Shown one piece after another: positions 6,009-24,501 of a stretch of DNA of 34,688 nucleotides. A program made the translations under genes and the position numbers. Source of the stretch: Bacteriovoracaceae bacterium (GTDB lineage: Bacteria > Bdellovibrionota > Bacteriovoracia > Bacteriovoracales > Bacteriovoracaceae). Each line of letters opens with the position of its first letter. Positions within the stretch are counted from its first letter, which is position 1. The notes below the pieces were generated by a model. The model was given only the letters and a program-made list of their open reading frames with translations, had not been told where the DNA came from and made no database searches. The stretch is from the NCBI GenBank assembly GCA_049599895.1, contig JBMYPC010000014.1:1-34688 (forward strand). Reading direction: 5' to 3'.

Positions 6009-7355
6009 ATGAGCAAAGATTTCCTAATTATTGAAGATGACGAACTATCGAGAGTGACTCTCGTCACCAAACTTTCAAATTATGGAAGCGTCCTTGAGGC
6101 CAAAGATTTAAAATCAGCTTTAGAATGTGCAAAAGACTTCAATGGCAAAATTGCCTTTGTGGATCTTGACCTTGATTCACCACTGGCGGGTTTAGAGCTT
6201 ATCGCTCCTTTAAAGAAAGCTGGAGCCTACGTCGTCGTTTTAAGTGGAAGAGAAGATGATGATTCAGTTCTTTCTGCTTACGAGCGAGGCTGTAATGATT
6301 TTATCGCTAAGCCTTTTTCCCCAATGGCCTTAAGCCTTGTTCTTCAAAAGTTTAATATTGGCCAAAAGTCTTCTGAGCTTGAAAAGTTCTTTAAGGAGAA
6401 CTTTTTAACTATGGATCAGGACTTAATTCTTCAAATCTCAAAACTTAAAGAAACTCTTTATGCCAATCGCCCAATATTAATCCAAGGTGAAACGGGGACA
6501 GGGAAAAGTCTTCTGGCAAAACTGATTCATGACTTCTTTTTAGAGAAGAAAGGACCATTTGTTCACTTGAATGTCTCAGAGATCCCAGAGAATTTGATTG
6601 AATCAGAACTTTTTGGTCATAAAAAAGGCGCTTTTACTGGGGCGACCAACGATAAGCTTGGAAAGTTTAAACTTGCTGATGGTGGAGTTCTTTTTCTTGA
6701 TGAAATAGGAACTCTTTCAAAGACCATGCAAAATAAGCTTTTAAGAGTCATTGAAGAGAAATCTTTTTATCCTGTTGGCAGTGATCAATTGGAAAGCAGT
6801 GACTTTCGACTCTTAAGTGCGACATGTGAACCTCTTCAAAGTTATATTACAGAGGGAACGTTTCGAGAGGATCTCTATTTTAGGCTTTCAGGGCAGCTCA
6901 TAACGATTAAGTCATTAAGAGAGCGGTCTTTAGATATTGAAAAACTCATCCAGCATTTTCTCAAAGCAGGAAAGAGACGAGTGGTCTTTGAGAAGACTAC
7001 AAAAGATGCTCTTTTTTCTCATGATTGGCCTGGAAATGTAAGAGAGCTAGAGAATCTCATTCGTCTTCTTCAAACGAAGTCTGAGGGGATTATAAAGTTA
7101 GAGGATCTCCCTTTCACGGCAAAAGCTTCAAAAGCGAAACAGATCGTTATGGAGAGTCAACCTGATGTTGATCTTGTTAAGGAAGTGGGTCTTAAGGCCT
7201 ATATCGAATCAATTGAGGACCAGGTCGTAAAATCCATTTATGAATTAAATGAAAAAAAGGTCAGAAAAACTTTGGATGATCTTAAAATCTCATCCAATGC
7301 CTTTTATCGAGTAATGAAAAGAGTCGACGATCAAACAAAGGAAATCACTTCATGA
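6009..7355 (+). CDS. Sigma-54-dependent response regulator (NtrC/LuxO-type: REC-AAA+-HTH)
   Basis: REC (IIEDD, FVDLDL, LSG, FIAKP); Walker A GETGTGKS, ESELFGHKKGAFTGA, LFLDEIG, FREDLYFRL, WPGNVREL; C-terminal HTH. Confidence 0.95.
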   Translation: MSKDFLIIEDDELSRVTLVTKLSNYGSVLEAKDLKSALECAKDFNGKIAFVDLDLDSPLAGLELIAPLKKAGAYVVVLSGREDDDSVLSAYERGCNDFIAKPFSPMALSLVLQKFNIGQKSSELEKFFKENFLTMDQDLILQISKLKETLYANRPILIQGETGTGKSLLAKLIHDFFLEKKGPFVHLNVSEIPENLIESELFGHKKGAFTGATNDKLGKFKLADGGVLFLDEIGTLSKTMQNKLLRVIEEKSFYPVGSDQLESSDFRLLSATCEPLQSYITEGTFREDLYFRLSGQLITIKSLRERSLDIEKLIQHFLKAGKRRVVFEKTTKDALFSHDWPGNVRELENLIRLLQTKSEGIIKLEDLPFTAKASKAKQIVMESQPDVDLVKEVGLKAYIESIEDQVVKSIYELNEKKVRKTLDDLKISSNAFYRVMKRVDDQTKEITS

Positions 7356-7573
7356 GTTCAAACACAGACGAGATTAATTCAGAGGTTCTTTCCACTATTA
7401 TCCACGACATGAACTCAGGACTTTCGTCTTTGTCCCAGGCCATTGAGATTGTGAAAGAGAATATTGACTCTGATCCAGAGCTTTGTAAGCAACTCCTTAA
7501 TCTCATGCACGATAAGTCTCATAAGGTGATGGACACTTGGAATTCAGCGAAGGGTCTTCTGCAAAAGCATTAA
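7352..7573 (+). CDS. Stand-alone HisKA/DHp-like small protein (putative phosphotransfer protein)
   Basis: ATGA overlap with the regulator; H-box-like LSTIIHDMNSGLSSL followed by a second helix; no ATPase domain. Confidence 0.75.
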   Translation: MSSNTDEINSEVLSTIIHDMNSGLSSLSQAIEIVKENIDSDPELCKQLLNLMHDKSHKVMDTWNSAKGLLQKH

Positions 7574-7584
7574 GATTTCTTAAA

Positions 7585-7617
7585 CTGAAACAGCCGTTCA
7601 ATTTTGAAACAAACATT
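7585..7617. promoter_or_regulatory. Putative activator-binding sites (TGAAACA x2) upstream of sigma-54 promoter P1
   Basis: ctgaaacagccgttcaattttgaaacaaacatt; the same motif recurs upstream of P2. Confidence 0.5.
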
Positions 7618-7652
7618 TATAGCTAATTTCAAGCTTTTAGCCCTGAAAAAAT

Positions 7653-7668
7653 TGGTACGTGTCTTGCT
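7653..7668 (+). promoter_or_regulatory. Sigma-54 (-24/-12) promoter P1
   Basis: TGGTAC-GTGTC-TTGCT versus consensus TGGCAC-N5-TTGCW; GG at 7654-55 and GC at 7666-67 (GG-N10-GC). Confidence 0.8.
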
Positions 7669-7679
7669 CATGTCTCTTT

Positions 7680-7820
7680 ATGACATAACGGAAGTCATTT
7701 CGAAGGGCGCCTCAAACAACCCCCATAACAAAAAGCTTGGGGCGTCCTTTGAAGAACTTTTAGTCACTAAATTTATTTTAGGAGAATTTACAATTTTCAG
7801 GCAGCAAATCCTGAAATTCG
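7680..7820 (+). ncRNA. Putative sigma-54-driven structured sRNA or 5' leader
   Basis: Starts at the predicted +1 of P1; hairpins ATGAC/GTCAT, a 17-bp stem 7699-7715/7737-7753 with three G-U pairs, and TTTCAGG/CCTGAAA at about 7795-7816. Confidence 0.55.
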
Positions 7821-7855
7821 ATAGATTAATATTGGTTCAACCACCGGAGACAACT

Positions 7856-8113
7856 ATGCTTAGATTAATTGATGTATCTTCATTTTTAGATTTTATTTTG
7901 GATTCAAAGAAAAAAGAATCTCTCAAAAAGGAAGTCGCTGTAGAGAAGGAAGCCGTAAAAAAAGTTGAAAGCAAGAAAAGTGAAAGGTATTTCTGTCCCA
8001 CTTCAAATGCGATGGCCTTTTATGAGGGTTGTTTCATTGGAAGTTCTGATCTAAGAGAGGGATTCTCTGAGTTTGATCGCAGAATGGACTTTAACCACCA
8101 AGAGGGGCGATAG
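7856..8113 (+). CDS. Hypothetical 85-aa protein
   Basis: GGAGA RBS before ATG 7856; C-terminal part of track ORF 7604..8113, whose 5' half overlaps promoter P1. Confidence 0.55.
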   Translation: MLRLIDVSSFLDFILDSKKKESLKKEVAVEKEAVKKVESKKSERYFCPTSNAMAFYEGCFIGSSDLREGFSEFDRRMDFNHQEGR

Positions 8114-8170
8114 TCGGCCGTATACGCAACGCTCCTGGATGTCTCTATAAATCTCAAATAGAATACTTTT

Positions 8171-9040
8171 ATGTTTAAAAAAGTCGCAATTGTGGGCGGT
8201 ACCCACGGAAATGAATATACCGGAGTCTATCTTGTTAAGCATCTCGAGAAACATCCTGAGAAGCTTAATAAGTTTTCCTATGAAATCCAAACCTATATTG
8301 GAAACCCAGAAGCTTACAAAGCGAATAAAAGGTTCTTAGAAGAAGATCTCAATCGGTCTTTTGTGGATAAGAACTTAAAGGATCAACCAGAGAGTCTTGA
8401 GGGCAAGCGCGCCCGAGAAATGCAAGAGATTCTAAGGGATAAGGAAGCCGTGGACTTTCTTATTGATCTTCATACAACAACTTCAAACATGGGAAAGACA
8501 GTGGTTCTTTCAAAGACGGATGTTCTGACTCATGCCTGTTGCCAATATTTAAGCGAAAAGATGCCAGATATTAAGATTATTGATGATGAGCGGGTCAATG
8601 AGGAGTCTTATTTTGTGAATAAGATTGCCCCTGCTGGAATTTTGATTGAGGTTGGGCCAACTCCCCAGGGTGTGTTAAGAGCTGATGCTTATAATGGAAC
8701 AAGCGAGATCCTTGATCATATTCTAGATTTCCTTGAGCTTGTTAAAATTGGAAAGCTTGAGCTTAAGGAATCGATTTGCGAATATGATTTTGAGCGCTAC
8801 AAAGAGCTCGAGACAATTGAATATCCTGTGGATGAAAACGGTGAGCTTGCGGGTATCATCCATTCTGAGCTCCAAGATAAGGACTTCGAACTCATTAAAT
8901 CTGGAGATCCTCTGTTTCAGCTTTTTAGTGGAGAAGTTATTCGCTATGATGGTGAGCCTTTCTACCCAATATTCGTAAACGAGGGTGCCTACTATCCAAA
9001 GAAGCTTGCCTTCACCAAGACCATAATCAAAAAAGACTAA
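8171..9040 (+). CDS. Aspartoacylase (AstE/AspA family Zn deacylase)
   Basis: GGTHGNE, DLNRSF, DLHTTTSNMG, IEVGP and FVNEGAYY motifs. Confidence 0.92.
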   Translation: MFKKVAIVGGTHGNEYTGVYLVKHLEKHPEKLNKFSYEIQTYIGNPEAYKANKRFLEEDLNRSFVDKNLKDQPESLEGKRAREMQEILRDKEAVDFLIDLHTTTSNMGKTVVLSKTDVLTHACCQYLSEKMPDIKIIDDERVNEESYFVNKIAPAGILIEVGPTPQGVLRADAYNGTSEILDHILDFLELVKIGKLELKESICEYDFERYKELETIEYPVDENGELAGIIHSELQDKDFELIKSGDPLFQLFSGEVIRYDGEPFYPIFVNEGAYYPKKLAFTKTIIKKD

Positions 9041-9049: not shown

Positions 9050-9075
9050 CTGAAACAACATTTGAAACAACATTC
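9050..9075. promoter_or_regulatory. Tandem repeat TGAAACAACATT x2, putative activator sites upstream of P2
   Basis: ctgaaacaacatttgaaacaacattc; matches the motif upstream of P1. Confidence 0.5.
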
Positions 9076-9127: not shown

Positions 9128-9143
9128 TGGTCACCCCCATGCA
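9128..9143 (+). promoter_or_regulatory. Sigma-54 (-24/-12) promoter P2
   Basis: TGGTCACCCCCATGCA: GG at 9129-30 and GC at 9141-42 (GG-N10-GC). Confidence 0.6.
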
Positions 9144-9185: not shown

Positions 9186-9269
9186 ATGAAACAAGTTCAA
9201 ATCGCTGCATTCATCGCCGTCTCATTCGGCTTTCCACTGGCCATCATCTCAATCGCTTTTGCCAGCTAA
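9186..9269 (+). CDS. 27-aa hydrophobic small protein MKQVQIAAFIAVSFGFPLAIISIAFAS
   Basis: Not in the ORF track; strong GGGGAG RBS directly upstream; single TM-like helix; first ORF after P2. Confidence 0.7.
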   Translation: MKQVQIAAFIAVSFGFPLAIISIAFAS

Positions 9270-9287: not shown

Positions 9288-9527
9288 ATGTCAAAAGCTA
9301 CAAGGTGGCCCAGACTCGATATGGGCCACCATATTTCAAAAAATACCAACAAAGCAAAGTTGAACCTCATCACAGGCGCAGCTTTCGTAAACCTACTACT
9401 CGTGATGAGCCTTTATCTCACGAACGGATTCACTGAGCTTGCAGGCTTTGCTTTTATTGTTTCGATTTCGACGATTCTGATTGTGATTGCGAGGAGGGGG
9501 CTTTGTTTTAGGAGGGTGGTCGCATGA
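9288..9527 (+). CDS. 79-aa small membrane protein (two TM helices); its 3' half is duplicated at 16044
   Basis: GGGGG RBS; hydrophobic segments; the duplicated 3' end keeps the RRGLCF translation. Confidence 0.7.
   Translation: MSKATRWPRLDMGHHISKNTNKAKLNLITGAAFVNLLLVMSLYLTNGFTELAGFAFIVSISTILIVIARRGLCFRRVVA
9398..9499 (+). repeat. 102-bp direct repeat, copy 1 (left border of the halogenase cassette)
   Basis: Identical to 16044-16145 by direct comparison. Confidence 0.97.
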
Positions 9528-9627: not shown

Positions 9628-11067
9628 TTGAATTTTGATGCAATCGTAATCGGTGGGGGGCCTGCAGGCACAAGTGCAGCAACTTTACTAAAAAAAAATG
9701 GATTGAGAACTCTTTTATTGGAAAAAGAAGTATCAACTCCATATAAAGTTGGAGAGTCATTACTTCCCTCAGCTTTAGCATTTTTTGATATTTTAGGAGT
9801 TCGAGAGAAAGTTGAAAGTCATGGGTTTACCAAGAAGAATGGTGCATTTCTGAGATGGGGAAGAGACCCTGAGCCATGGAGTATAAACTTTGGCGAGTTA
9901 AGTGGAAATGAAACTTATAGCTACCAAGTCGTTCGTTCTGAATTTGATGAACTTTTATTGTCTCATGCAGAATCTGTAGGAGTTGAAGTCATACGGGGCG
10001 CTATGGTTAATGATGTTTCTTTTAGCGACAAAGGCATTAAAGCAATTACTTATGTGCAATCAGGAAGAGAGTATTCGGTAGAGGTGAATTATTTAATCGA
10101 TGCAACGGGGCAAAGAGGTTTATTATCTAATAGATATTTAAACTCCAGAGTACAAAATGAATCATTTCAAAATATTGCGATCTGGTCTTATTGGGAGGAG
10201 TATGAACCACTGCCAGGAGATGCTTCTGGAAATATAATAACAGCGGCATTTCGGGACGGATGGATCTGGGGAATACCTCTCCATGATGGGAGGTTGAGTG
10301 TTGGTGTTGTTCAGCATAAAGACCTATTTATGGAAAAGAGGACAAGGTCATCCATTGAAGAAATTTATGAAACTGCAATAAGTTGTTGTAAGGTCGTTTC
10401 GAGTCGTCTCGTAAATGCTCGTCAATGCGATCGGATTAGAACTGCAAAAGATTATTCTTATAAATCCAATGTTCTGGCAAGAGATAACTATTTTCTTGCT
10501 GGTGATGCTGCTTGTTTTCTAGATCCCGTTTTGTCCTCTGGTGTTCACCTCGCGATGCTGTCTGGAACCTTAGCCGCATGCTCGATAACAGGAATCTTGA
10601 ATAATGTTGTATCCGCCAAAGAGGCCATTGATTTTTATTCTAGTACTTATTCAAGTGCATATCTAAGATTTATGCATTTTTTAAGTGCGTTCTACAATCA
10701 AAACGATGATCAGAATTCATACTTTTGGAAAGCTCAGAGTATAGCTTCTAGTGATTCAATTAACCAGGATTTAAAGTCCGCATTTTTGAATCTCGTAACC
10801 GGTGTTAAAGATCTCGATGAAGTAGAGCTTCACTCTCGAATTAATAAGTTTATGAAAAATAAAGTAAATGAAAACTTAAATTGGAGAAAACAGAAAAAAA
10901 GCCTTAAAAATTTTTCGAATGCTTTGGAAAGAAAAAGACTTAAAGAAAACGAAGACATTTTTAATCTAATTGAAGGCTTTGATCCTAGTAAAATCAAAGA
11001 TGAGCGACTTGGTATTTCTATGAAATTCCTGGATGGTAAACTTTCACTTTTCAAAGGTTTTGCATAA
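9628..11067 (+). CDS. Flavin-dependent halogenase (phenolic/tyrosine type)
   Basis: GGGPAG, KVGESL (catalytic Lys), WIWGIP (WxWxIP) and GDAACFLDPVLSSGVHLA motifs; TTG start after GGAG. Confidence 0.92.
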   Translation: MNFDAIVIGGGPAGTSAATLLKKNGLRTLLLEKEVSTPYKVGESLLPSALAFFDILGVREKVESHGFTKKNGAFLRWGRDPEPWSINFGELSGNETYSYQVVRSEFDELLLSHAESVGVEVIRGAMVNDVSFSDKGIKAITYVQSGREYSVEVNYLIDATGQRGLLSNRYLNSRVQNESFQNIAIWSYWEEYEPLPGDASGNIITAAFRDGWIWGIPLHDGRLSVGVVQHKDLFMEKRTRSSIEEIYETAISCCKVVSSRLVNARQCDRIRTAKDYSYKSNVLARDNYFLAGDAACFLDPVLSSGVHLAMLSGTLAACSITGILNNVVSAKEAIDFYSSTYSSAYLRFMHFLSAFYNQNDDQNSYFWKAQSIASSDSINQDLKSAFLNLVTGVKDLDEVELHSRINKFMKNKVNENLNWRKQKKSLKNFSNALERKRLKENEDIFNLIEGFDPSKIKDERLGISMKFLDGKLSLFKGFA

Positions 11068-11085: not shown

Positions 11086-11973
11086 ATTAGCAACACGGGA
11101 CACTGGTATGCATTCATAGCCTTTTTTAGCTGGGGGATCTTACCTTTATATTGGAAAAGTATTGATTTTCTAGAAGCAGATGTAATTCTTGCTTATCGTA
11201 TAATTTTGTCTGCCATATCGATGTGCCTTTTTTATTTGTTGATTAAAAAAGGCAGAATGATTTTCGATATCCATCAAGTGTTAAAACATTTCCTTCCCTC
11301 TTTCTTTCTAGCGTCGAATTGGTTGATTTTTATTTATGCTGTGAATGAAGGACATCTTTTGGAGGTTGGATTAGGGTATTATCTCGCTCCAATCCTCAGT
11401 TGTGGAGTTGGGTTATTCCTATTTCATGAAAAAGTTAATTTGTTTAAGGGTCTTGCTATCTTTCTCGCGTGTGTAGGTGTTTTTTACTACTCTTTTTCTA
11501 TTGGTAGATTTCCAACCCTAGCAGTTTCTCTCGCTGTGACTTTTGTCCTTTATGGTGCTTCAAAAAAAATGGTAAAAACAAACCCTACAGAATCTTTGCT
11601 CTATGAATCTCTTGCGCTATTCCCCATTGCTCTTGCTTATGCTTTCCTTAAAGAGAAAAATATCAGTATGGTTGAATTGACATGGTCACAGGAAACCTTA
11701 GTTGCGATATCTGGTATTGTTACAGTTGTTCCTTTGATTTGGTTTTCTAGGGCGGCAAAACTATTGGAGTTCAATGTTCTTGGCTTTTTTCAATATATTG
11801 GGCCGACTACAAATTTTTTCTTAGCTTTATTTGTATTTAAAGAGAATTGCTCATCTGAGAAAATGGTAACTTTCATATTTGTTTGGTCGGCAGTTCTTAT
11901 TTTTATTTTTAGTCACAAACTTTCTTTTAGACTCGATGAATGGCGTAGTAACTTTCTCGAAAAAGTGAGCTGA
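11086..11973 (+). CDS. rarD: RarD-like EamA/DMT transporter (probable ATT start at 11086)
   Basis: The frame upstream of the track start gives ISNTGHWYAFIAFFSWGILPLYWK; NWLIFIYAVN, LGYY and GFFQYIGPT are RarD motifs. Confidence 0.85.
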   Translation: MSNTGHWYAFIAFFSWGILPLYWKSIDFLEADVILAYRIILSAISMCLFYLLIKKGRMIFDIHQVLKHFLPSFFLASNWLIFIYAVNEGHLLEVGLGYYLAPILSCGVGLFLFHEKVNLFKGLAIFLACVGVFYYSFSIGRFPTLAVSLAVTFVLYGASKKMVKTNPTESLLYESLALFPIALAYAFLKEKNISMVELTWSQETLVAISGIVTVVPLIWFSRAAKLLEFNVLGFFQYIGPTTNFFLALFVFKENCSSEKMVTFIFVWSAVLIFIFSHKLSFRLDEWRSNFLEKVS

Positions 11974-11975: not shown

Positions 11976-12962
11976 ATGAAAGAATCTGACATTCTAGTAA
12001 AGAAAATTTATGGTTACTATATTACACAATGTATAGGAGTGGCGGCTGAACTGGGTTTAGCTGATATACTTGGAGATAAAACACTTTCCGTTAAAGAGCT
12101 TGCTTCTGAAAGTATTGTAAATGAGGATGCGCTATATAGGATGCTAAGGTTGCTTTGTTCTGAGGATATTTTTGTCGAGGTGAAGGATAGGCATTTTTCA
12201 AATTCAAATATTTCGAAATATCTCAAGAAAGATCATGAAACAAGTTTAAATGGTCTTGCAAGGCTTCATTGTGACAAGCTTTGGTGGAACTCTTGGGGAG
12301 AACTTAGATTTTCGATTAAAGAGAACAAGCCTTCAACAGATTTTGTATTCAAGAAAGGTGCATTTCAGGTTATGAAGGAAAACAAGGAGATAAATGATAT
12401 TTTTAATTTTGCAATGACAAACTTATCTTCTCGTGATGCTCGCGCAGTAACAAAGGTGTTTGATTTTACGAAGTTTAAAAATGTAATTGATATTGGAGGT
12501 GGAGAAGGAGCTTTAATAAATGGAATTAAGAACCAACTAAGTGGGTTTAAGATAGACTTTGCTCTATTTGATCAAGGGCATGTCATAAAAAAAGTAACAT
12601 TAACTGATATTAATCTTGAGTTTGGCGACTTCTTTCAATCAGTACCTAAAGGTTATGACTGCTATATATTGAGACATATCTTGCATGACTGGAGTGATGA
12701 ACGTTGTGAAACAATTCTAAAAAATTGCGTAGAGGGAATGAAGCCAAACTCTACTTTATTGGTGATAGAACTCCTTTTAGAGAAAGGGAAGGAGTCGAGC
12801 ATTGCGAAGTACCGTGATATGAATATGTTGGTATCAATGCATGGAGGGAAGGAAAGATATATTAGCGAATATGAAAAATTGTTTTTGAGTGCAGGAGTAA
12901 AGTTAGTTGAAGTAATACCGCTCCCTGGTCAAATGAACATTCTTGTTGGAAAACGTTTATGA
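11976..12962 (+). CDS. SAM-dependent O-methyltransferase (methyltransf_2 with dimerisation domain)
   Basis: AAELGLAD dimerisation region; DIGGGEG, GDFF, ILHDWSD and GKER motifs. Confidence 0.93.
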   Translation: MKESDILVKKIYGYYITQCIGVAAELGLADILGDKTLSVKELASESIVNEDALYRMLRLLCSEDIFVEVKDRHFSNSNISKYLKKDHETSLNGLARLHCDKLWWNSWGELRFSIKENKPSTDFVFKKGAFQVMKENKEINDIFNFAMTNLSSRDARAVTKVFDFTKFKNVIDIGGGEGALINGIKNQLSGFKIDFALFDQGHVIKKVTLTDINLEFGDFFQSVPKGYDCYILRHILHDWSDERCETILKNCVEGMKPNSTLLVIELLLEKGKESSIAKYRDMNMLVSMHGGKERYISEYEKLFLSAGVKLVEVIPLPGQMNILVGKRL

Positions 12963-16145: not shown

Positions 16146-16189
16146 ATTGTGTTTTAAGGGATGTTTTCTTTCGTGTTAAGATTAGAGTT

Positions 16190-16816: not shown

Positions 16817-17134
16817 ATGGAAAGCATAATTAGTATTTACAGAATTAAAAACAGTGGAAAGAAGCATGTTGAGGATTTAGTCCAAACTCTAACAGAAAGG
16901 TTTGAGGATTCTTTAGAAACATTGGATGAAGCTGGAGTAAAAATTGAAAGCATTTTCATAAAAAATGATCGATTATATACCTACAAACTTGTTAGAAATA
17001 TAGAAGAGATGAGGAAAATTCAAAAGAGCTCAAATAAAGCAATTCATTCAATCATTAGGCCAATTGTTCAAGAATATCTAGAGTTTGAAGAAGAGATAAT
17101 TGCAGAAATAAACTTTATTGTTTCTTCTTTATAA
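16817..17134 (+). CDS. Small hypothetical protein (DUF6176-like, dimeric alpha/beta barrel)
   Basis: ETL-EAGVKIESIF pattern; 105 aa; GAGAG RBS. Confidence 0.6.
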   Translation: MESIISIYRIKNSGKKHVEDLVQTLTERFEDSLETLDEAGVKIESIFIKNDRLYTYKLVRNIEEMRKIQKSSNKAIHSIIRPIVQEYLEFEEEIIAEINFIVSSL

Positions 17135-18410
17135 CCCCAGGATAATACTTCTCAAAGAAAACAGAAGTCTCTTTAGGATCAGCTCTTAAGAATGTCTTTA
17201 TATGTGGAATCAAAAGAAGTCCTGGAACAAGTAACAGAACCCCTGTGCCCATCATTTGTAAGGTGACTTTGGTATTATAAGATTCAATTATCAATCCAGC
17301 CAAAGCAATTCCAATAGGTTTTATACCTCTTGTAAAAAACTGCAAACTCGAAAAAATTCTAGAACGATAATGATCTGGAATTGATAGTGCCATTTGAGTT
17401 TTTATAGGAATATTTGTAATCGAGCATCCAATACCGAAGATTAATAAGAGAAATGGTAAAATATAAGAGTTCGATATCAAGGAAAAGAGAATAAATGATG
17501 ATGAGATAAGGAGTGTACCAAGTATTAATACTCCGTCAGCTTTAATTTTACGACAAAGGTATCCAATAAATAACCCGCCCAGAATTGCACCGATTCCTTG
17601 GCCAGCCTGTGTAAGCCCATATACCCAAGAATCATGATTAAGGTCAGACTTTATTAAAACAGGGAGAACTATAACGAGTGGCGAGATAGAAAAATTAATA
17701 AACATCGCAACTAAACTTAACCCAAATAGAGTCGGAAGTTTAAAGAGAACTCTCAGTCCATCAATAATTTCTTCTGCGAATGAGGAAATTTTAAAACTTT
17801 TCAAGACAGGCTTCTTAGACGCACTAGAGGTTGTCTTGACTTTCATAAAAGCAGCTAAGAGAGATGCAATAAAAAATGTTGATGCATCTAAAATAAAAGC
17901 CTCTCCGACACCAAGAAAGGCAACAATTAAACCCCCTGTAGCGCTTCCAATGATTGCTCCTAGGGAAGTGATAATTTGAGAGTGTCTCATTGCGTGAAAA
18001 AGATGTTTATCTGCAACTAATTGAGGAACAATGCTATTTTCAATACTAAGGAATAAAGCTGAGCCAATGCCATACAAAATAAAGATAATTATCACCAGCG
18101 GTAGATAGAAGATGTCCATAAAGACCATTATGCTAATAATAACAATGAGTGATCCTCTCCATATGTCACTAATAATGGCAATCCCTTTACGTGAAAACCG
18201 ATCACCTAATGGTCCAAGAATGGGTAAGAGAGCGTAATTGAAAAATGACAAAGGTGCAATAATAGAAGACATAACTGTCGCGGAACCTGTTTTCTCTAAA
18301 ATCCACCAGGCAATAGCAATTGTGTTTATGGAATCGCCGGCTCCTGAAATGAACTGACCAATTCTAAAAAGCCAGAAGCTTTTTCCAAGGGTTTTGATTT
18401 GGTTTAGCAT
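17115..18410 (-). CDS. MFS transporter (EntS/macrolide-efflux-like, about 12 TM)
   Basis: GQFISGAGD, GPLGDRFSRK and IPDHYRSRIFS motifs; ATG 18410 avoids overlap with the kinase (track start 18452). Confidence 0.9.
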   Translation of the reverse strand: MLNQIKTLGKSFWLFRIGQFISGAGDSINTIAIAWWILEKTGSATVMSSIIAPLSFFNYALLPILGPLGDRFSRKGIAIISDIWRGSLIVIISIMVFMDIFYLPLVIIIFILYGIGSALFLSIENSIVPQLVADKHLFHAMRHSQIITSLGAIIGSATGGLIVAFLGVGEAFILDASTFFIASLLAAFMKVKTTSSASKKPVLKSFKISSFAEEIIDGLRVLFKLPTLFGLSLVAMFINFSISPLVIVLPVLIKSDLNHDSWVYGLTQAGQGIGAILGGLFIGYLCRKIKADGVLILGTLLISSSFILFSLISNSYILPFLLLIFGIGCSITNIPIKTQMALSIPDHYRSRIFSSLQFFTRGIKPIGIALAGLIIESYNTKVTLQMMGTGVLLLVPGLLLIPHIKTFLRADPKETSVFFEKYYPGVIKKKQ

Positions 18411-18423
18411 AACTAAGGCCTTT

Positions 18424-20478
18424 TTAAGATTCCCAGGGAGGGGTTTTGCCAATGACCTTCTTTATAAATGGAGAATCTTTTAACTCCTTATCGATATGTC
18501 CTGTCGATAGTATTATGTGATGGTACCCTTTTCGAAAAAGCTGCTCCGCGATCTCAAGGCCTCTCGTATCATCACCAAGTTCCTGGTCGATATAGAAGAT
18601 ACTATCAAAAGGAATAGTCGAAAGTTTTGGTTCAAGCTCTTGAAAACGGGAGAAGCTTAAGAGATTGATGCTTTGTTTTTTTGCTTGAGCTTTCCATGTT
18701 AGTATGACTAGAGGATCATCATCTAAGTGGACTATAAGCTTATTTTTATGATTACTCAGGGGAACACTTTTCACGGAAACATCCATAATCATATTTTTGG
18801 GAATCATCTTCAATCCCATTTCTATACACTTTTTTTGAATTTCTTCGTCTTCAAAGTGGGATGTTACTAGGACTGATTTCTTTGCAACTTGAAACTTCTG
18901 AATAAGGTCAAGTCCTGATTCATTAAATCCATTTAATTCGAAATCTGAAAGGAGAAGGAAATTGTCAGATGTCAAGCTTAAGACTTTTTCAAGTTCTTCG
19001 GGGGTGGAAATATGTACTTTTTTATTTGAAATTGACTTAAGTTTTTCAGCCCAAACTTTATGAATCGTATTCTCGTCATCGAGAATAATGACTTGAGTAT
19101 CATTGTCTAACTTTAGAGACGAAATAAACCACTTGGGTGGAAGTGCTAAAGGCAATTGTATTCTTATAGAAGTGCCCCATTTTGGGCTTGAGTTGATAGT
19201 TAGCTTACCAGAAATAGAGTTAATGTATTGGCTTGCTGAAGATAAGCCGATACCATTTCCCATAGGTTTACCATAAGTTATTTCTTTACCCTCTTTGATT
19301 TTTGTTAAAACATCATATGGTATGCCATGACCATTATCTTGAACCTCAATAACTGCCCAAGGGGATTCTGAGTATGCTTTAATTTCAATTTGTCCGTCTT
19401 TTCCGGAGATAGCTTCTGCTGAATTGTTTATAATGTTAGAGAGGACTCTTTTAAATTCGATTGGATCTAGTTTTGCAAACAGATTGTAAGAATCTTTTTC
19501 TTGGTGCAATGAAATCGTTAGGTTTAGAAAGTTTCGAAATTGAATTCTTTTTTCTGTTAACAAGCTTTCAATAAGAGGTTTTAAAGCGACGGTTCCGTTT
19601 GTTTGGGGATGAGGCCTTTCATTTTCCAAAAGGTTGTTTGCGATATCTTGTATTCTTGTTGTTGCTTCGATTATGAGAGTTTTTTTATCTGATGTAATGC
19701 CTTCCAAATCTTTTGATACCATCTCTAGTGCCGATACTGGAGAGCGAATGTCATGAGCTACACGTTTCGCTATTGTAGTTAAAGCTTTATCTTCAGTTAT
19801 TTTGATGAGGTCCTTTTTGTAATGGTCAATTCTTTTTATTGCAGAGTCAAAACCATTGAATATCGAACTAACTTCAGAGTAAGAGGTATGATCTTTAAGC
19901 TTATATAAGTCGATGACTTCAATATCTGATTTTTCAAGGGTCTCAGCAAGATAAGTAATTGATTTTGAGACGTTCTTTCCGATCATCCTTATGAGCAGGA
20001 CTTGAACAATGGATAATATAATTAGCGAAAGAAATAATAAACTGATTATTTTTAATATAGCACTTTGGAAGAAACTTAGAGAGTAGGCAATTTCTATTCT
20101 CGCTGCAATGTTCTCTTTGTTTTCATCGAAGAAGATTTTAGATGAAATTCTGAATATATTGTCTGTGTCACCTGTTTTTGAGAAATTGCATATTATAGTA
20201 CCATCCTCTCTTAGGATGTTTACTAAAAGAATGTCGCTATCTTGAAAAACGGCTTTGCATTTTCTGTAAACTTCGCTGTCCCTCCCAATTAACACATCAT
20301 TTAAAACACTTTCTTGAAAAAGGTTGTGAAAGTTTTGAAGTTGAGATCTGAAATGAGATTGAATCTGATTGTTGAGTATTAAATAACAAAGTAATGAAAA
20401 AAGAATGAATACCAAAATGTTCACAAGGTAAGTTGGAATTAGGAATGCTTGCCGGATACTAAGCTTTTTAATTTTCAA
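18424..20478 (-). CDS. Hybrid sensor histidine kinase B (paralog of kinase A)
   Basis: RVAHDIRSP, SNIINNSAEA, DNGHGI and GNGIGL motifs; two REC domains; probable TTG start 20478 after AAGGAAG (track start 20523). Confidence 0.93.
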   Translation of the reverse strand: MKIKKLSIRQAFLIPTYLVNILVFILFSLLCYLILNNQIQSHFRSQLQNFHNLFQESVLNDVLIGRDSEVYRKCKAVFQDSDILLVNILREDGTIICNFSKTGDTDNIFRISSKIFFDENKENIAARIEIAYSLSFFQSAILKIISLLFLSLIILSIVQVLLIRMIGKNVSKSITYLAETLEKSDIEVIDLYKLKDHTSYSEVSSIFNGFDSAIKRIDHYKKDLIKITEDKALTTIAKRVAHDIRSPVSALEMVSKDLEGITSDKKTLIIEATTRIQDIANNLLENERPHPQTNGTVALKPLIESLLTEKRIQFRNFLNLTISLHQEKDSYNLFAKLDPIEFKRVLSNIINNSAEAISGKDGQIEIKAYSESPWAVIEVQDNGHGIPYDVLTKIKEGKEITYGKPMGNGIGLSSASQYINSISGKLTINSSPKWGTSIRIQLPLALPPKWFISSLKLDNDTQVIILDDENTIHKVWAEKLKSISNKKVHISTPEELEKVLSLTSDNFLLLSDFELNGFNESGLDLIQKFQVAKKSVLVTSHFEDEEIQKKCIEMGLKMIPKNMIMDVSVKSVPLSNHKNKLIVHLDDDPLVILTWKAQAKKQSINLLSFSRFQELEPKLSTIPFDSIFYIDQELGDDTRGLEIAEQLFRKGYHHIILSTGHIDKELKDSPFIKKVIGKTPPWES

Positions 20479-22003
20479 CTTCCTTTTTAGTAGACCACAA
20501 TATTTTCCATAATTCACTTTCATATCGAAAATTCGTTTCAGGAATTGTTATTGCTTTTCTATGTATAACAGGAACGTTTATTCGATAAAGAGGGATAATA
20601 AACCATTGATCTTCAAATTCTCTAAACGCTGAGGAGTAAAGGTTAAGTCTCATTGACTGATCAGTGGTAAATCGAATGTCGTTGATCTTTTCAAAAAAAT
20701 GATTGTTAGGAAAAACTCCATATCTTAGTGGCGATGTTGGTTTTATAATGTCAATAAAGCCATCAGGGTCGGGGAAGTTCCCAAAGTATCGACCACCTAT
20801 AATATCATAGTTGTTATTAGCCATATGCTTTACTAGTGTGTTTGGGGTCGCTTTTATCAAATTGATTTCAGCCCCAAGTTTATGAAAAATTTCTGTGATA
20901 GAATCAAAGAAAGAGTCAGTGAAAACGCTCTTCATCAATACGATGTTGATTTTCTTATGGCTGAGGGATCGACCCCACCTCTTTTTTACCTCATTAATTG
21001 ATGTGACGTACTTTTCTCTTTTATAGTATTTTAATGGCATCACTCCTTTTGGAAGAAAAGTGGGGGAGATTTCGTGCAGAAACGACTTATTGCTAGAGAA
21101 TCTTGCTTCTTGCATTATTAAGGAGGCAATATCTTTGCGAATTTCTTTTTTCAAGAACAGTTTTGAGGTGGCGTTGAAGTACATGTGAGCGATCGCTAAA
21201 GAGCGAGATTTTGTGATCAAGGTGTTTTTGGGGAGGGAGAGATTTTCCAATTCAGACAAAGGTAGTCCGAGAGCAATATCTAACAGACCTTTTTTGAATA
21301 GTTGAAATGCTTTTCTTGTTGTTTCAATAGACCTAACTGATATTGAATTCAGTTCTGGCAAGTTGCCTTTATAAAGTTCATTTTTATTGAATTCCCACCG
21401 CTTTGATTTTGAGTTGAAGTTGTTTGTCATTGGTCCTGAGAAACGATGATCTTCCTTTGATAAAATAGCAAAACCAGGCATAGATAGAACATGTAAAAAA
21501 GGGGGGTATGGTTTGATTAGTTTAATACTTAATTTTGTAGGAGAAAGAACTTGAATAGATTTGTGAATTTTACCCTTTTTAATGGTTTTATCTTCTGCAA
21601 GTAATGGTTTTAGATAACCAGCGACCATAGAGTTATGCCAGAAGTGTCTAGAAATACTGATTGCGACATCTTTAGCTGTCACTCTTTTTTTTAGATGATG
21701 AAAGAAGGCATCTTTTACGATTTCGAACTCGTAGACTGAGCCATTTTCTTTAATCTTCCATTTCTTCGCGAGATCTCCAACAATTGTACCTTTTTCAGAG
21801 ATTCGAACAAGTGTTTGGCTGGTGCATTGAAGTAGTAAAAAGTGTTCCATAAAGGCAAGTTTTGTGGGATCTAACGTTTTTGGTAGATGGGTGATTCCAA
21901 CTTCAAGCATAGAGTTTTCTTTTCTGAGGTTAACTTTTTCAAGTGCCTGAAGAGAAGTGAAACCAAAAAGTACAAACATAATGATAAAATTATAGAAGCT
22001 CAT
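20468..22003 (-). CDS. Family-5 (OppA/DppA-like) peptide-binding protein; no permease nearby
   Basis: Signal peptide; TLDP, TLVR, GDLAKKW, VTAKDV and IIPLY motifs. Confidence 0.88.
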   Translation of the reverse strand: MSFYNFIIMFVLFGFTSLQALEKVNLRKENSMLEVGITHLPKTLDPTKLAFMEHFLLLQCTSQTLVRISEKGTIVGDLAKKWKIKENGSVYEFEIVKDAFFHHLKKRVTAKDVAISISRHFWHNSMVAGYLKPLLAEDKTIKKGKIHKSIQVLSPTKLSIKLIKPYPPFLHVLSMPGFAILSKEDHRFSGPMTNNFNSKSKRWEFNKNELYKGNLPELNSISVRSIETTRKAFQLFKKGLLDIALGLPLSELENLSLPKNTLITKSRSLAIAHMYFNATSKLFLKKEIRKDIASLIMQEARFSSNKSFLHEISPTFLPKGVMPLKYYKREKYVTSINEVKKRWGRSLSHKKINIVLMKSVFTDSFFDSITEIFHKLGAEINLIKATPNTLVKHMANNNYDIIGGRYFGNFPDPDGFIDIIKPTSPLRYGVFPNNHFFEKINDIRFTTDQSMRLNLYSSAFREFEDQWFIIPLYRINVPVIHRKAITIPETNFRYESELWKILWSTKKEVEN

Positions 22004-23152
22004 TATAATATCTTTTTTCCTAGAGGATTCTTATTATTATATGTGGTTATTAGGATATCTCTATCCAGATAAACCTTAGTAGCTTTATACTTAGAAGAGG
22101 ATAAATAGCTTAATGCTTTAGAAGGAATCAATGACAGGAGTTGAATTACCCCATGAGATCTAAGTTTTGCAAGTCTTTCAACTCGAGATGTGTTGCAAGT
22201 GAAAAAAGTATCTTTCTTAAAGTTTTCTGGAAATATAAGTGACAAATTGCTTATGTCTGAAACTTCTTTCTTAGTTTTGAAATCTGGTGTTTCAAATTGA
22301 TAAACTTTTTTATCTCTTAAAAAACGAAAAAAAATAGGGAATATCTCCTCGAGACAGTTGTTCAACCTCAAAAGGCATAAATGTTGAAAAGTTATTGTTA
22401 AGAACTGCATCTCTATAGCTCTTTGTTTCTCGAATAATTACCCTAATTGGACAATTCTCAATATCTTGAAGGCTGTTTAAAGTTTGGTATATCTGCAATT
22501 CATAATCATTTAAAGTTTCAATACTTGATACGTAACCATGAGTCATTGCACATACAGCCTCAGTAGTGAAATCTAAGTCTGAAATTTCGTTGAGGCACTG
22601 AAGCCCGAAATTATTAAAGGTTTTTTGGGAGTCGGGGATCAAGCGTGTTTGAGACGGTAAGATGTAATCATTGAAAATCGATTCTATATCGAGAGGAAAA
22701 ACTACTAATGAATCTTTTGAGTTTGAAATAATAATATTTTCAAGGTGAAGGTCTCCAATTCCGAACCACGACAACAAAGCAACGATAGCGCCGAGGGATT
22801 CGTATTGGCTTAAAGGAACATCAGTAGAAAAAGTAGATTCGAGAGGTAAATATGTTAATGACCCTGAATAGATTTCATCCCCTGAGAAGGTGACTTCCAA
22901 ATCTGGGATAGATTGAAATGGAGAGGTTTTATTAGAATTTTTAAATATTTCGTTTATGTAGATTCGAAGTGGGCTTTTACCAGAAAGAAAAAGATATTCC
23001 CAGAAAACTGATCTCGGCTTTAAAATTTGATCAGGTCCTTGTCTAGTTACTTGGCGACCGAAGTTGTGACGGTCGCCAAAAGTTTTTTGCAAATTGTTAG
23101 GCAGCTTAGATTGTATCAACTCCAACAACCTCTTCTTTTTCAACTTCTTCAA
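22003..23152 (-). pseudogene. Stand-alone LanM-type dehydratase domain (DUF4135), split by a 1-nt frameshift (or sequencing error) at A8 22327-22334
   Basis: GDRHNFGRQV, LKPRS, GIGDLHLENII, PLDIESIF, RVIIRETKSY and QLSRGDIPYFF motifs; removing one base joins ORF 22003..22410. No LanC cyclase domain. Confidence 0.82.
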
Positions 23153-23174
23153 TTTCTACAATTGTTACGTTCAT
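23106..23174 (-). CDS. 22-aa putative RiPP precursor MNVTIVEIEEVEKEEVVGVDTI
   Basis: Not in the ORF track; AAGGAGA RBS; first ORF of the operon, overlapping the DUF4135 start; acidic leader-like stretch followed by GVDTI. Confidence 0.65.
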   Translation of the reverse strand: MNVTIVEIEEVEKEEVVGVDTI

Positions 23175-23226
23175 GATACATTCTCCTTGATGTGATTATT
23201 TGGACTAATAAAAGCCAAGTGATGTC

Positions 23227-23254
23227 ATTTTATGTAAAGCAAGATGATAGTCAA
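23227..23254 (-). promoter_or_regulatory. Putative sigma-70 promoter of cassette B
   Basis: Minus strand TTGACT-N16-TAAAAT upstream of the peptide RBS. Confidence 0.45.
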
Positions 23255-23343
23255 GGTAAATATAATTAATTGAAATTTTTAGTGTTTTGTTAATGAAACG
23301 ATAGTGTTTTAGAACTGAAACGGGGATAGGAAAACAACACGTT

Positions 23344-24501
23344 ATGAAAGCGTATTTAAACAATTTTTCTCTTCAAGTAATAATATCCACGCTACCAAAT
23401 AGTATTATCGTAGTGTTCATCCCTCTCTTCCTTGAACACTTAGGCATTCAAGGGGTTTATCTTGGGTTAGCCTTTACGAGTGTTAGATTATTGTCAATTC
23501 TAGGGGGGCTCTCAACTCCATACTTCTTAAGGCGATTTCCTCCAAGTTCGGTTTCATTTGGAGCAGAAGTCCTTAATTTTGGACTCATTGTTGTTGCGAT
23601 TCTGGCACTTCATAATACTTTCGGTGCTCTTTTTTTTATTGCAATAATATTAAAGGGATCTTCAATAGGGTTAATTAATACTACTAGGTTCTATTGGCTG
23701 AAGAATCTCGAAGATAAAACCTTATCTAAAAGAATTTTCATTGCAGTGAACTCAATCTATCAGTCTACATATGGCCTTGCTGGAGTTCTTTATCTTTATC
23801 TAAGTGAATGCGAAAATATTCTTTATTATCTCTTGTATATCGATGCTTTTTCGTCACTTTTAGGAGCTTTTCTATTTTATTCCTTAAGATCATTTAACGT
23901 AAGAGAACAAGAAGTTAACTCTAGCGTTTCAAAGTTTTTTGAAATTTTTCGATTTCCATTTGCCTACCTTACTTTAATGGATTTTACCTTTGCCCTGGCA
24001 ATGGGAGGGATTAATGTGTTGTTAGTGAAATATGGGAGCGTTTATCTTGAAAACTTTGGAGGGTATGGAGGAGCCCTCTTAATTTATGGGATATTTTATT
24101 TTCTTGGAGGTGTTTTTATTAATAAAAATAAAAATGATCAATTCTATGACCGGTTATTCAGGTCCCCATATATATCTTTAGGACTATTGTTAGGGTTTTC
24201 TCTTCTTGCAATTGGTAGTGATAGAGTCTTCTTTTCTATTTTGGGGTTAGTATTAATCTTTTTTTTAGGGCCAGTTTATTCTCTTGTAATTCAATCGAAA
24301 TGGTTGGACTTGAGCCCAGGGGCGGAGGCTTCCCAATATTTTGCTTCGAGGACATTTTTAGTTCAAGTTGTAATGGCTGTTGGTGAATCTTTGTATGCTG
24401 CTTTAAGCAAAGACATATATATAAGAATTTTACTTGTTGTGATTTTCTTTCTTTTGAATGTTTTTGTTTCAAAGAAAATAGCATCAACAGAAAGGTCTTA
24501 A
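23344..24501 (+). CDS. Divergent MFS-like transporter
   Basis: 385 aa with about 12 hydrophobic segments in two halves; divergent from the peptide operon. Confidence 0.75.
   Translation: MKAYLNNFSLQVIISTLPNSIIVVFIPLFLEHLGIQGVYLGLAFTSVRLLSILGGLSTPYFLRRFPPSSVSFGAEVLNFGLIVVAILALHNTFGALFFIAIILKGSSIGLINTTRFYWLKNLEDKTLSKRIFIAVNSIYQSTYGLAGVLYLYLSECENILYYLLYIDAFSSLLGAFLFYSLRSFNVREQEVNSSVSKFFEIFRFPFAYLTLMDFTFALAMGGINVLLVKYGSVYLENFGGYGGALLIYGIFYFLGGVFINKNKNDQFYDRLFRSPYISLGLLLGFSLLAIGSDRVFFSILGLVLIFFLGPVYSLVIQSKWLDLSPGAEASQYFASRTFLVQVVMAVGESLYAALSKDIYIRILLVVIFFLLNVFVSKKIASTERS

Follow-up and report, generated by a model that had tools for sequence, protein, structure and literature searches.

The subject of this analysis is a sigma-54-dependent regulatory locus on a 34,688-nt stretch of DNA from a Bacteriovoracaceae bacterium (GenBank assembly GCA_049599895.1, contig JBMYPC010000014.1, positions 1 to 34,688). 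This stretch, hereafter the window, is the whole of contig C14 in an assembly of 3.27 Mb, 266 contigs, and 97% completeness; the sequencing runs containing its DNA are labelled seawater or marine metagenome. The locus comprises a response regulator (RR), a 73-aa protein with a histidine box (p73), sigma-54 promoter-like sites, and two cassettes, each with enzymes, an exporter, an orphan periplasmic binding protein, and one of two paralogous hybrid histidine kinases, HK1 and HK2 (Table 1). This gene content, read in an earlier note from the letters and their open reading frames (ORFs), was recovered by Pfam and NCBIfam. As the note had also stated, the cassettes lack a response regulator and an ABC permease of their own: among the window ORFs scanned, neither a second response regulator nor an ABC permease or ATPase was found.

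Table 1. Features of the regulatory locus and its two cassettes (positions refer to the window)
Positions	Strand	Feature	Basis
6009..7355	+	RR: NtrC-type sigma-54-dependent response regulator, receiver (REC) and AAA+ domain with GAFTGA	Pfam, NCBIfam
7352..7573	+	p73: DHp-like helical hairpin with invariant His18, proposed His-phosphotransfer protein	Alignment, AlphaFold2, docking
7585..7612	+	Motif pair CTGAAACAG / TTGAAACAA, 68 and 49 nt before P1	Motif scan
7653..7668	+	P1: sigma-54 promoter-like site TGGTACGTGTCTTGCT	Consensus scan, upstream motif
7698..7754	+	18-bp hairpin downstream of P1, leader or small RNA	Folding
7856..8113	+	85-aa ORF, GGAG ribosome site, no family	ORF scan
8171..9040	+	Aspartoacylase (AstE/AspA family), likely in the P1 transcript	NF002601, 300 bits against a cut-off of 180
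9050..9070	+	Motif pair CTGAAACAA / TTGAAACAA, 78 and 66 nt before P2	Motif scan
9128..9143	+	P2: weak sigma-54-like site TGGTCACCCCCATGCA, GG and GC with correct spacing only	Motif scan
9186..9269	+	27-aa hydrophobic ORF with ribosome site	ORF scan
9288..9527	+	79-aa membrane ORF, 3' part duplicated after cassette 1 by the repeat	Sequence comparison
9398..9510	.	Left repeat copy	Repeat search
9628..11067	+	Cassette 1: flavin-dependent halogenase	Trp_halogenase, 2.4e-44; CmlS model 293 bits, below cut-off
11206..11973	+	Cassette 1: RarD/EamA transporter	Pfam, NCBIfam; profile match from position 61-66
11976..12962	+	Cassette 1: O-methyltransferase, Methyltransf_2 and dimerisation domain	Pfam
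12959..14059	+	Cassette 1: orphan periplasmic binding protein Peripla_BP_6, signal peptide, overlaps HK1 start	Pfam
14056..16026	+	Cassette 1: HK1, two transmembrane segments, periplasmic loop of ~97 aa, DHp (HDIRSP), CA, REC, REC	Pfam, alignment, transmembrane reading
16044..16156	.	Right repeat copy	Repeat search
17115..18452	-	Cassette 2: exporter-type transporter of the major facilitator superfamily (MFS), MFS_1/MFS_3	Pfam, NCBIfam
18424..20523	-	Cassette 2: HK2, HK1 paralogue with a different sensor part	Pfam, alignment
20468..22003	-	Cassette 2: orphan SBP_bac_5, peptide/nickel/opine type, signal peptide	Pfam, NCBIfam
22003..23152	-	Cassette 2: stand-alone DUF4135 protein resembling the kinase-like portion of the N-terminal LanM domain	Pfam, NCBIfam
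23105..23173	-	22-aa acidic ORF, AAGGAG ribosome site, ahead of the DUF4135 gene; speculative precursor	ORF reading
23344..24501	+	385-aa membrane protein, at least 10 hydrophobic segments, no family	Profile scans and hydrophobicity

HK1 and HK2 are 39% identical over 469 aa of their cytoplasmic part (E = 5e-106), and their sensor parts do not align. Each has two membrane segments with a loop of about 100 aa; Pfam matched no known sensor domain in either, and models of the TorS and VirA type match HK2 weakly. The genome encodes four such paralogues with a histidine kinase followed by two receivers (HK-REC-REC). The third, on contig C94, is overlapped upstream by an SBP_bac_5 gene, and the fourth, on C220, reaches a contig end. 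Twenty-seven members were aligned, four of them encoded by this genome and 23 by relatives. The H-box HDIRSP is the same in all 27, the N, G1, and G2 boxes vary little or not at all, and both receivers keep the acidic pair and, in all 27, the acceptor Asp (D488 and D604 in HK1), Thr/Ser, and Lys. The kinases are therefore composed of a dimerisation and histidine phosphotransfer (DHp) domain, a catalytic (CA) domain, and two competent-looking receivers, with no histidine phosphotransfer (Hpt) domain.

The AAA+ domain of the RR matches Sigma54_activat (E = 1.3e-57). Among 12 orthologues, E9, D10, D11, D52, S79, K101, and the Walker A sequence GETGTGK are conserved and GAFTGA is mostly invariant, so the receiver and AAA+ features of the NtrC type are present: the acidic pocket, acceptor Asp, Ser/Thr, and Lys of the receiver, Walker A, and GAFTGA. 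A putative C-terminal Fis-like helix-turn-helix was recognised only by eye; a KVRKTL..LKIS...FYR segment is conserved among orthologues, and HTH_8 gave no Pfam row. The RR scores 195.1 bits with the LuxO equivalog model NF041946 (cut-off 800) and higher than that with the NtrC, RtcR, and other NCBIfam models, every one below its cut-off. The genome encodes rpoN and nine sigma-54-dependent enhancer-binding proteins (EBPs).

The start codon of p73 overlaps the stop codon of the RR gene (ATGA), and the H-box of the protein reads IIHDMNSGLSSL. A word-based search with p73 returned only the self-match. An exhaustive search yielded 21 representatives at E ≤ 1e-3, none of them at E ≤ 1e-10 and all of 60-80 aa; the relatives include Bacteriovorax sp. 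DB6_IX and a Bacteriovoracaceae metagenome-assembled genome. A p73-like match in genome G052 was dropped, as it sits after a fragment of an EF-G gene instead of an RR gene. The sole invariant column of the resulting 22-row alignment is His18, and D19, N21, Q29, L51, W63, and K67 are near-invariant. AlphaFold2 predicts a two-helix hairpin with a pLDDT of 92.6 (helices 2-37 and 42-71). A Foldseek search gave nothing significant (all E ≥ 0.19), six of the top eight rows being histidine-kinase DHp-CA structures at about 20% identity; a sequence-profile search of the PDB was set aside, its rows being only coiled-coil-like chance matches. No Hpt domain (PF01627) was matched in p73 at E ≤ 0.01. The protein shows what is expected of a DHp-type phosphotransferase, namely a hairpin with a conserved His on helix 1; a CA-like (pseudo-ATPase) C-terminal domain is absent, since the protein stops after helix 2, and the family measures 57-80 aa throughout. 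As modelled, p73 is a DHp-like hairpin without a catalytic domain. The genome contains one p73 and no p73b, and its seven Hpt domains all lie within open frames of 339-907 aa, so there is no small stand-alone Hpt protein.

A sigma-54 RR stands beside the kinase genes in four of the 20 kinase neighbourhoods fetched from relatives (L075, L079, L084, and L087). In L084 and L087, the RR gene is followed by a 65-aa ORF with the H-box HDLK(S/R)D(I/V)HN, and the L084 protein scores 17 bits with the p73 profile. A family search with the small protein of L087 gave matches in 14 of 150 genomes; of nine regions fetched from this search, seven have the complete gene order and two are cut by contig ends (L112 and L116). 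In all, nine loci from other Bacteriovoracaceae genera (L084, L087, L110, L111, L113, L114, L115, L117, and L118) carry, on one strand, a sigma-54 RR, a small His protein, one to three further genes, and an HK-REC-REC kinase; we call these loci operon-type. In the seven complete regions, the RR measures 443-463 aa, the His protein 57-68 aa, and the kinase 667-837 aa, and in seven of the nine loci the genes of the RR and the small His protein overlap. The small protein of L115 matches both p73 (3e-5) and the operon-type subfamily (1.2e-7). An enzyme gene is among the in-between genes at all nine loci: a methyltransferase dependent on S-adenosylmethionine (SAM) in L087, L113, L117, and L118 as well as in the cut L112, a short-chain dehydrogenase/reductase (SDR) in L114, a Cupin_5 protein in L084 and L111, and a CMD-family protein with two unknowns in L115. 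In L110 (4513-6266), a protein of the PNP_UDP_1 phosphorylase superfamily, to which the nucleosidases of methylthioadenosine and S-adenosylhomocysteine belong, and a Peripla_BP_6 binding protein lie between the carrier and the kinase. In L084, a frameshift together with an in-frame stop breaks the RR gene (4932-6322) where it encodes the region of Walker A.

In L075 (~11440-11590, - strand) and L079 (~4767-4910, + strand), a mutually conserved ORF of 47-48 aa with a ribosome site, KH(E/K)(I/V)ENLI.KISLGWK.YK, lies between the RR and an SBP_bac_5 gene; it has no detectable relation to p73 and could be a further-diverged His carrier. The L087 operon (313-3187) adjoins type IV secretion genes (a TraG/VirB4-like ATPase and a TrbC pilin), a heavy-metal P-type ATPase, and an AcrB pump, which suggests that it is carried on a conjugative element.

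In the careful phylogenetic tree, the window RR, 11 orthologues, the kinase-adjacent RRs, and a second regulator of this genome form one clade (support 100/100) on a long branch apart from six other EBPs of the same genome. The second regulator, the C82 RR, is encoded at 7852-9219 on the - strand of contig C82 (L102). A FastTree phylogeny of the same set with 12 more sequences splits the clade in three: the stand-alone p73-paired RRs (16 rows, monophyly unsupported, 0.13), the operon-type RRs (nine rows, 0.98), and the C82 RR with those of L075 and L079. All RRs with a p73-family protein next downstream form one clade with a support of 0.98.

The RR receiver (residues 1-125) was modelled together with two copies of p73. 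The complex reaches an ipSAE of 0.64, against 0.01 for the best of three controls; in the calibration, 116 of 157 solved complexes and two of 215 mismatched pairs scored this high. The runs share at least 96% of their contacts, and the partner pLDDT is at least 85. The modelled interface joins receiver residues 11-21 (helix alpha-1), 54, 79-83, and 100-105 with p73 residues 14-33, including His18, and 44-55. Its geometry is that of kinase DHp-receiver complexes. The model thus amounts to a likeness to DHp docking and is not proof of binding.

The same docking geometry would serve a different function, in which p73 is a DHp-only phosphatase or inhibitor that sets a threshold for the RR without a relay step, either by hastening loss of the phosphoryl group from the receiver or by blocking a kinase: the geometry is identical for phosphatase and transfer reactions, and the p73 H-box has an acidic residue at +1 and N/S at +3/+4, a pattern resembling the phosphatase motif of HisKA kinases. 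The isolated DHp domain of EnvZ is also reported to dephosphorylate OmpR~P. We consider this function quite improbable, since a His carrier is needed between the RR and a kinase that has both receivers intact but lacks an Hpt domain, the operons provide exactly one candidate for this role, and its His is the only invariant residue.

P1 differs from the consensus TGGCAC-N5-TTGCW at one position and is the sole site of the window with at most one mismatch. This count is at chance level (1 against 0.80 expected; at least one site in 47 of 100 shuffles). On the evidence of sequence, P1 is taken as a real sigma-54 promoter because it shares an upstream motif with promoters on contig C82. Scanning the genome for NGGYAY-N5-NTGCW gave 92 sites, 33 of them outside long ORFs; with a similar, not identical, mask, 17.5% of the genome lies outside ORFs. 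The motif YTGAAACAA occurs 30-140 nt upstream, in the same orientation, of three of the 92 sites, against 0.44 expected, and these three all adjoin the two RRs of the one clade: P1 (49 nt), C82:3623 (50 nt), and C82:9259 (89 nt). The C82:3623 site, TGGCACAGGCCTTGCT, precedes a spermine-synthase-like gene, two DUF6445 genes, and an MFS gene, and the consensus-like C82:9259 site precedes the C82 RR gene itself (region 3573-9370). Three more pairs of the motif with a GG/GC site (C4, C7, and C248) were rejected, as they lie inside called ORFs of 60-110 aa. Bacteriovorax sp. DB6_IX has a good sigma-54 site, with copies of TTGAAAC at -98 and -68, at 6.5 kb from its RR/p73 pair. No sigma-54 site was found after p73 in 10 relatives, YTGAAACAA is absent from the sigma-54 sites near the operon-type loci, and for the 7-mer CTGAAAC by itself the window shows no enrichment (10 against 6.7 expected).

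The 183 nt after P1 (7678-7860) fold around the 18-bp stem with a z-score of -2.99; for the stretch after P2, the z-score is +0.33. Rfam, applied to the whole window at E ≤ 1, gave as its sole match an unrelated long non-coding RNA model at 93-291, and no Qrr; no relative of the hairpin was found for a conservation test. Since the 85-aa ORF and the aspartoacylase gene come next, the hairpin may be a 5' leader, which is at least as likely as a Qrr-like small RNA. Of the two sigma-54 promoters and the promoter-driven structured RNA that had been claimed for this locus, P1 and the fold stand, and P2 is reduced to its GG/GC core. Transcription from P2 would run into two small membrane ORFs and might reach cassette 1; between P2 and this cassette, a terminator-like site was not found.

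Together with the operons of relatives that join such kinases to an RR and a small His protein, the locus points to a previously undescribed multi-input signalling relay, which may serve cell-to-cell signalling. In the scheme we propose, a co-translated binding protein would present its ligand to the short periplasmic loop of the membrane HK-REC-REC kinase. The kinase would autophosphorylate the histidine of HDIRSP and pass the phosphoryl group to one of its own receivers, from which His18 of p73 would take it and hand it over to Asp52 of the RR. The phosphorylated RR would then activate sigma-54 promoters with an upstream YTGAAACAA, that is, P1 and probably P2. The phosphotransfer steps, the use of p73 and the RR by the window kinases, and the dependence on the binding proteins are all inferred from sequence. 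A relay through p73, with a His-Asp-His-Asp core and two input modules at the locus, is the best reading because of the operon-type loci, the RR clade, and the genome inventory of four kinases, one p73, and seven Hpt domains in large frames; we rate it slightly above an even chance. The phosphorelay logic of the earlier note is supported by these data, including the 0.98 clade, and by the complex model.

The RR/p73 pair itself is well conserved. At 19 of 20 other loci, the gene immediately before the p73 homologue encodes an RR orthologue (E from 1e-106 to 1e-137 to the window RR): 10 of 11 in a first set, 10 of 10 in genomes read at ±20 kb (seven of them shared with the first set), two of two in named organisms, and four of four in metagenomes. 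In the first set, L009 gave no RR match, and L006 has only a partial RR at a contig end. The gene order around the pair is common to most of the 10 genomes. In G012, Pfam identifies before the pair an SLT/TPR protein, a MiaB-like enzyme, and a 1666-aa protein with an Ig-like domain, and after RR and p73 a 260-aa protein of no family, a truncated class II tRNA-synthetase-like protein, FtsY, ZapA, 5-formyltetrahydrofolate cyclo-ligase, and RNase Y.

Several observations weigh against the relay reading. No kinase of the HK1/HK2 family accompanies the RR/p73 pair in any of the 16 other loci read widely enough (0 of 10 genomes at ±20 kb, and 0 of 2 and 0 of 4 loci with shorter flanks); in these relatives, the pair is surrounded by housekeeping genes. 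Of 150 genomes in 58 genera, 43 (18 genera) match the p73 profile and 57 (37 genera) encode the kinase family in one to nine copies; when the lists were compared by eye, 12 genomes were on both, where independence would give about 16. Genus g7 has p73 in 18 of its 19 genomes and the kinase in three of 19, which was counted against a dedicated link. G027 has an operon of RR, binding protein, and kinase, yet the p73 profile matches none of three genomes in its genus, and the only small ORF at that place is the unrelated one of 47-48 aa. It follows from the co-occurrence data and G027 that p73 is neither required by every kinase of the family nor confined to them. The C82 RR is sister to the kinase-adjacent RRs of L075 and L079 (97/90), so that the idea of one shared regulator is not supported; with its own sigma-54 promoters, the C82 RR could be the target of the window kinases. 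P2 is weak, with four mismatches to the consensus and only TGG...TGC kept, and is a plausible promoter at best; no sigma-54 site was found in the window directly before either cassette operon. The ipSAE of the complex model may reflect the memory of solved kinase-regulator complexes. Finally, the DUF4135 gene of cassette 2 is frameshifted, which may be an assembly error or a real disruption.

Alternatively, the neighbourhood might be coincidental: RR and p73 would be a core relay with other inputs, and the cassettes would be islands signalling elsewhere, likely to the C82 RR. The absence of a family kinase from all 16 other RR/p73 loci, the lack of excess co-occurrence, the grouping of the C82 RR with the RRs of L075 and L079 and its promoters for itself and for an operon of enzyme and MFS genes, the repeats flanking cassette 1, and the lower G+C content of the cassette region all fit this explanation. 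However, the nine operon-type loci bring kinases together with a p73-family protein, and the only copy of this genome adjoins the window RR. No kinase gene or p73-like gene was seen on the 14.3-kb contig C82, and a 56-aa ORF after the C82 RR was rejected as not p73-like, which leaves that regulator with no small p73-family ORF. Moreover, P1 and a C82 promoter share the motif at nearly the same distance (49 and 50 nt); therefore, the two regulators probably overlap in their targets and are not separate circuits. We regard a coincidental neighbourhood as unlikely.

With regard to the cassettes, 23 kinase homologues in 20 loci of relatives were surveyed. A binding-protein gene lies on the same strand, at most two genes upstream, at 15 of the 23 kinases and not at the other eight; 13 of these proteins are SBP_bac_5, one is Peripla_BP_6, and one is a weak SBP_bac_5 (E = 5e-4). 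In this genome, such a gene precedes three of three assessable kinases. The genes between or upstream in the 20 loci encode YcaO-like proteins in six (one weak), GNAT proteins in three, methyltransferases in two, and radical SAM proteins in two; single loci have a nitroreductase-type protein beside YcaO, or an SDR with a haem-oxygenase-like protein and an amino-acid permease. MFS genes fall within the kinase gene run at two loci. The combination of enzyme, binding protein, and kinase is therefore a real, variable module. The recurrent variable design and the repeat-flanked cassette 1 support the view of swappable cassettes taken in the earlier note.

Signal-peptide ORFs of 72-136 aa open several cassettes (L073:4534-4923, L090:11862-12218, L074:11538-11819, L082:12955-13173, and L089:2438-2848). 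Those of L073 and L090 have similar Cys-containing tails, ..YA(K/R)P....C...., and the products of these small ORFs are possible secreted pro-peptides.

Flavin-dependent halogenases are marked by GxGxxG, a catalytic Lys, and WxWxIP. The enzyme of cassette 1 has GGGPAG at 9, KVGES at 40 (K40), and WIWGIP at 212. The RarD/EamA ORF may be N-terminally short, without its first membrane helices, and has a 139-nt spacer upstream. The genes of the O-methyltransferase, Peripla_BP_6, and HK1 are joined by successive 4-nt overlaps. In cassette 2, the supposed enzyme of a modified peptide is not a LanM: against TIGR03897, the DUF4135 protein scores 39.6 bits (residues 116-165 only; cut-off 304), and it has no cyclase domain. 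Its gene consists of ORFs of 280 and 135 aa, with a frameshift near 22320-22340 in a T-rich run and the frame switch at ...DIPYFF; the homologues, one of them from Silvanigrella paludirubra, are single proteins of 317-381 aa. The frameshift is also present in the source contigs, and the contigs of a second sample did not span the stretch.

The layout, with enzymes and exporter-type transporters beside a receptor, is the reason for a quorum-sensing reading, in which the products of the cassettes' own enzymes would be exported by the cassette transporters and act on the kinases as autoinducer-like ligands. We put this forward tentatively, at clearly less than even probability; the case for the enzymes as makers of the kinase ligand is one of gene layout. 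A relay that is real and yet serves no quorum sensing is about equally possible: the binding proteins would sense foreign compounds, such as peptides from prey or the environment, fragments of cell walls, or aromatic compounds, and the enzymes and transporters would modify, detoxify, or take them up, or the cassettes would be antibiotic clusters with their own sensor. Cell-wall-type enzymes do occur at kinases (Amidase_3 and GNAT in L077; a D-Ala-D-Ala dipeptidase and a class IV aminotransferase in L091), SBP_bac_5 proteins bind peptides, nickel, or opines, and the family is predatory by name; furthermore, the enzyme types are too diverse for one signal chemistry, and the DUF4135 gene of the window is broken. 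On the other hand, two-component quorum sensing is usually laid out with a synthase-type enzyme next to the receptor kinase, as in PhcB/PhcS, where the enzyme is a methyltransferase. The transporters that accompany the cassettes are of the exporter type (MFS_3 and EamA), not importers, the YcaO, radical-SAM, nitroreductase, and halogenase genes are of biosynthetic types, and small signal-peptide ORFs precede several cassettes. The broadest version of the quorum-sensing reading is that the Bacteriovoracaceae have mobile, mix-and-match cassettes, each producing and exporting its own small molecule or modified peptide, which it senses with an HK-REC-REC kinase coupled to a binding protein, and all feeding one DHp-only carrier and RR clade; this appears somewhat unlikely.

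A direct repeat of 113 nt (110 of 113 positions identical, 97%) frames cassette 1 exactly, and the genome has no further copy of it. Contigs of the probable source run end at the repeat, whose node has a depth of 23.7, against 8.9-9.7 for the flanks and the cassette. This depth fits cassette 1 being integrated between two copies, and a circular form is also compatible with it. Such a repeat pattern marks an island that was inserted and may be excisable; no integrase gene lies within it. A 27-nt stretch of the repeat, searched for as an exact match, was absent from the metagenome contigs (0 found), so no empty site or alternative cassette could be demonstrated there. Among 149 other genomes, the 79-aa ORF at the left repeat has one weak match, with internal stops. 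Parts of the RR, p73, and both cassettes are also present in a second marine sample and are identical wherever they were compared. The G+C content of the cassette region is lower, 0.33-0.37 against 0.37-0.41.

Upstream of the RR lie mreC, a 179-aa ORF without a name, a gene of a PBP2-type transpeptidase, and a gene of the FtsW/RodA family, and a GNAT gene and a DUF6176 gene separate cassette 1 from cassette 2. The far end of the contig (30512-34596) consists of accessory-type genes, namely those of a DUF6932 protein, an HTH_3 protein, and a DUF6036 nucleotidyltransferase, and includes an ORF with just the C-terminal domains (IMS_C and DUF4113) of a UmuC/ImpB-type polymerase.

Multi-step phosphorelays are known with Hpt proteins or with carriers of the Spo0B/ChpT type of about 200 aa. 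If the present reading is true, no relay component smaller than this bare DHp carrier of 57-80 aa with its dedicated RR clade would be known; it would form a new class of phosphotransferase in place of Hpt and would lend itself to studies of specificity. The kinases that recur among binding proteins and tailoring enzymes (YcaO, radical SAM, GNAT, methyltransferase, and halogenase) provide testable candidate pairs of signal and receptor in a family that takes its name from predatory bacteria. Should the bacteria make the ligands themselves, a Gram-negative predator would have a quorum-sensing design, based on peptides or small molecules, that grows with each cassette acquired. In its broadest version, the reading would give predatory bacteria multi-channel quorum or kin sensing that can be extended by gaining cassettes. 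In the openly available literature searched, we found no description of DHp-only carriers or of cassettes of binding protein, YcaO, and kinase, and in the same literature no quorum sensing for Halobacteriovorax or this bacterial group.

In Vibrio quorum sensing, the phosphorylated state is the low-density state, and membership of LuxP/LuxQ is defined by the LuxP-type binding protein and the periplasmic sensor of LuxQ. The hybrid kinases LuxPQ, LuxN, and CqsS signal through LuxU to LuxO and Qrr (PMC8895600). The likeness is that several hybrid kinases, one of which works in Vibrio with a periplasmic binding protein, share a small His carrier as their route to a sigma-54 RR, as they would here, and that signal synthase genes lie beside receptor genes in Vibrio. 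Unlike in Vibrio, the RR is below the LuxO cut-off, the carrier is modelled as a 73-aa DHp-type hairpin and not an Hpt protein, and no Qrr is matched; the binding proteins are of the Peripla_BP_6 and SBP_bac_5 families, and the kinases, with two receivers each, lack a sensor of the LuxQ type. Membership of the LuxO, LuxU, LuxPQ, and Qrr families, on which the earlier note had modelled the circuit, was thus tested and found for none; therefore, the locus would work like Lux and is no Lux system.

NisK/NisR belong to a peptide-modification cluster with its own product-sensing kinase and consist of a classical histidine kinase and an OmpR-type response regulator, with no binding protein and with full LanB/C or LanM enzymes. 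Lantibiotic autoinduction by NisK/NisR is named in the same source (PMC8895600). Unlike that system, the window has only a stand-alone, frameshifted DUF4135 protein. TorT-TorS and ChvE-VirA are binding-protein-dependent sensor kinases for nutrients or host cues. The window resembles them in pairing a hybrid kinase with an orphan periplasmic binding protein that has no transporter of its own, and differs in that its cassettes are set among tailoring enzymes and exporters. In Ralstonia, the SAM-dependent methyltransferase PhcB, the signal maker, is encoded with the sensing kinase PhcS (PMC11960443, PMC8578825). Similarly, five operon-type loci have a methyltransferase between the relay and the kinase. 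The kinase and regulator families are different, and the Phc output is the LysR regulator PhcA, with no binding protein and no sigma-54.

TacA is an NtrC-type sigma-54 activator. In Caulobacter, the hybrid kinase ShkA, with the order DHp-CA-Rec1-Rec2, relays to TacA through the separate phosphotransferase ShpA (PMC6969517; PMC7010744). By analogy, ShkA-ShpA-TacA is the closest architectural relative of the putative chain of kinase, carrier, and regulator. ShkA is a soluble protein with a c-di-GMP-binding pseudoreceiver as its Rec1, and ShpA is of the Hpt kind, whereas the kinases described here are membrane sensors, both of their receivers keep the acceptor residues, and the carrier is DHp-like. 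For the carrier itself, the closest relatives, again by analogy, are Spo0B and ChpT. Spo0B, ChpT, and PhyT have a helical hairpin with the His on helix 1, dock to helix alpha-1 and the beta5-alpha5 loop of receivers, and act between two receivers. The predicted structure of p73 is likewise a hairpin with the His on helix 1, and it is modelled as docking to the alpha-1 and beta5-alpha5 region. However, Spo0B, ChpT, and PhyT are proteins of ~200-250 aa with a degenerate CA-like domain, whereas the members of the p73 family, at 57-80 aa, consist of the hairpin alone.

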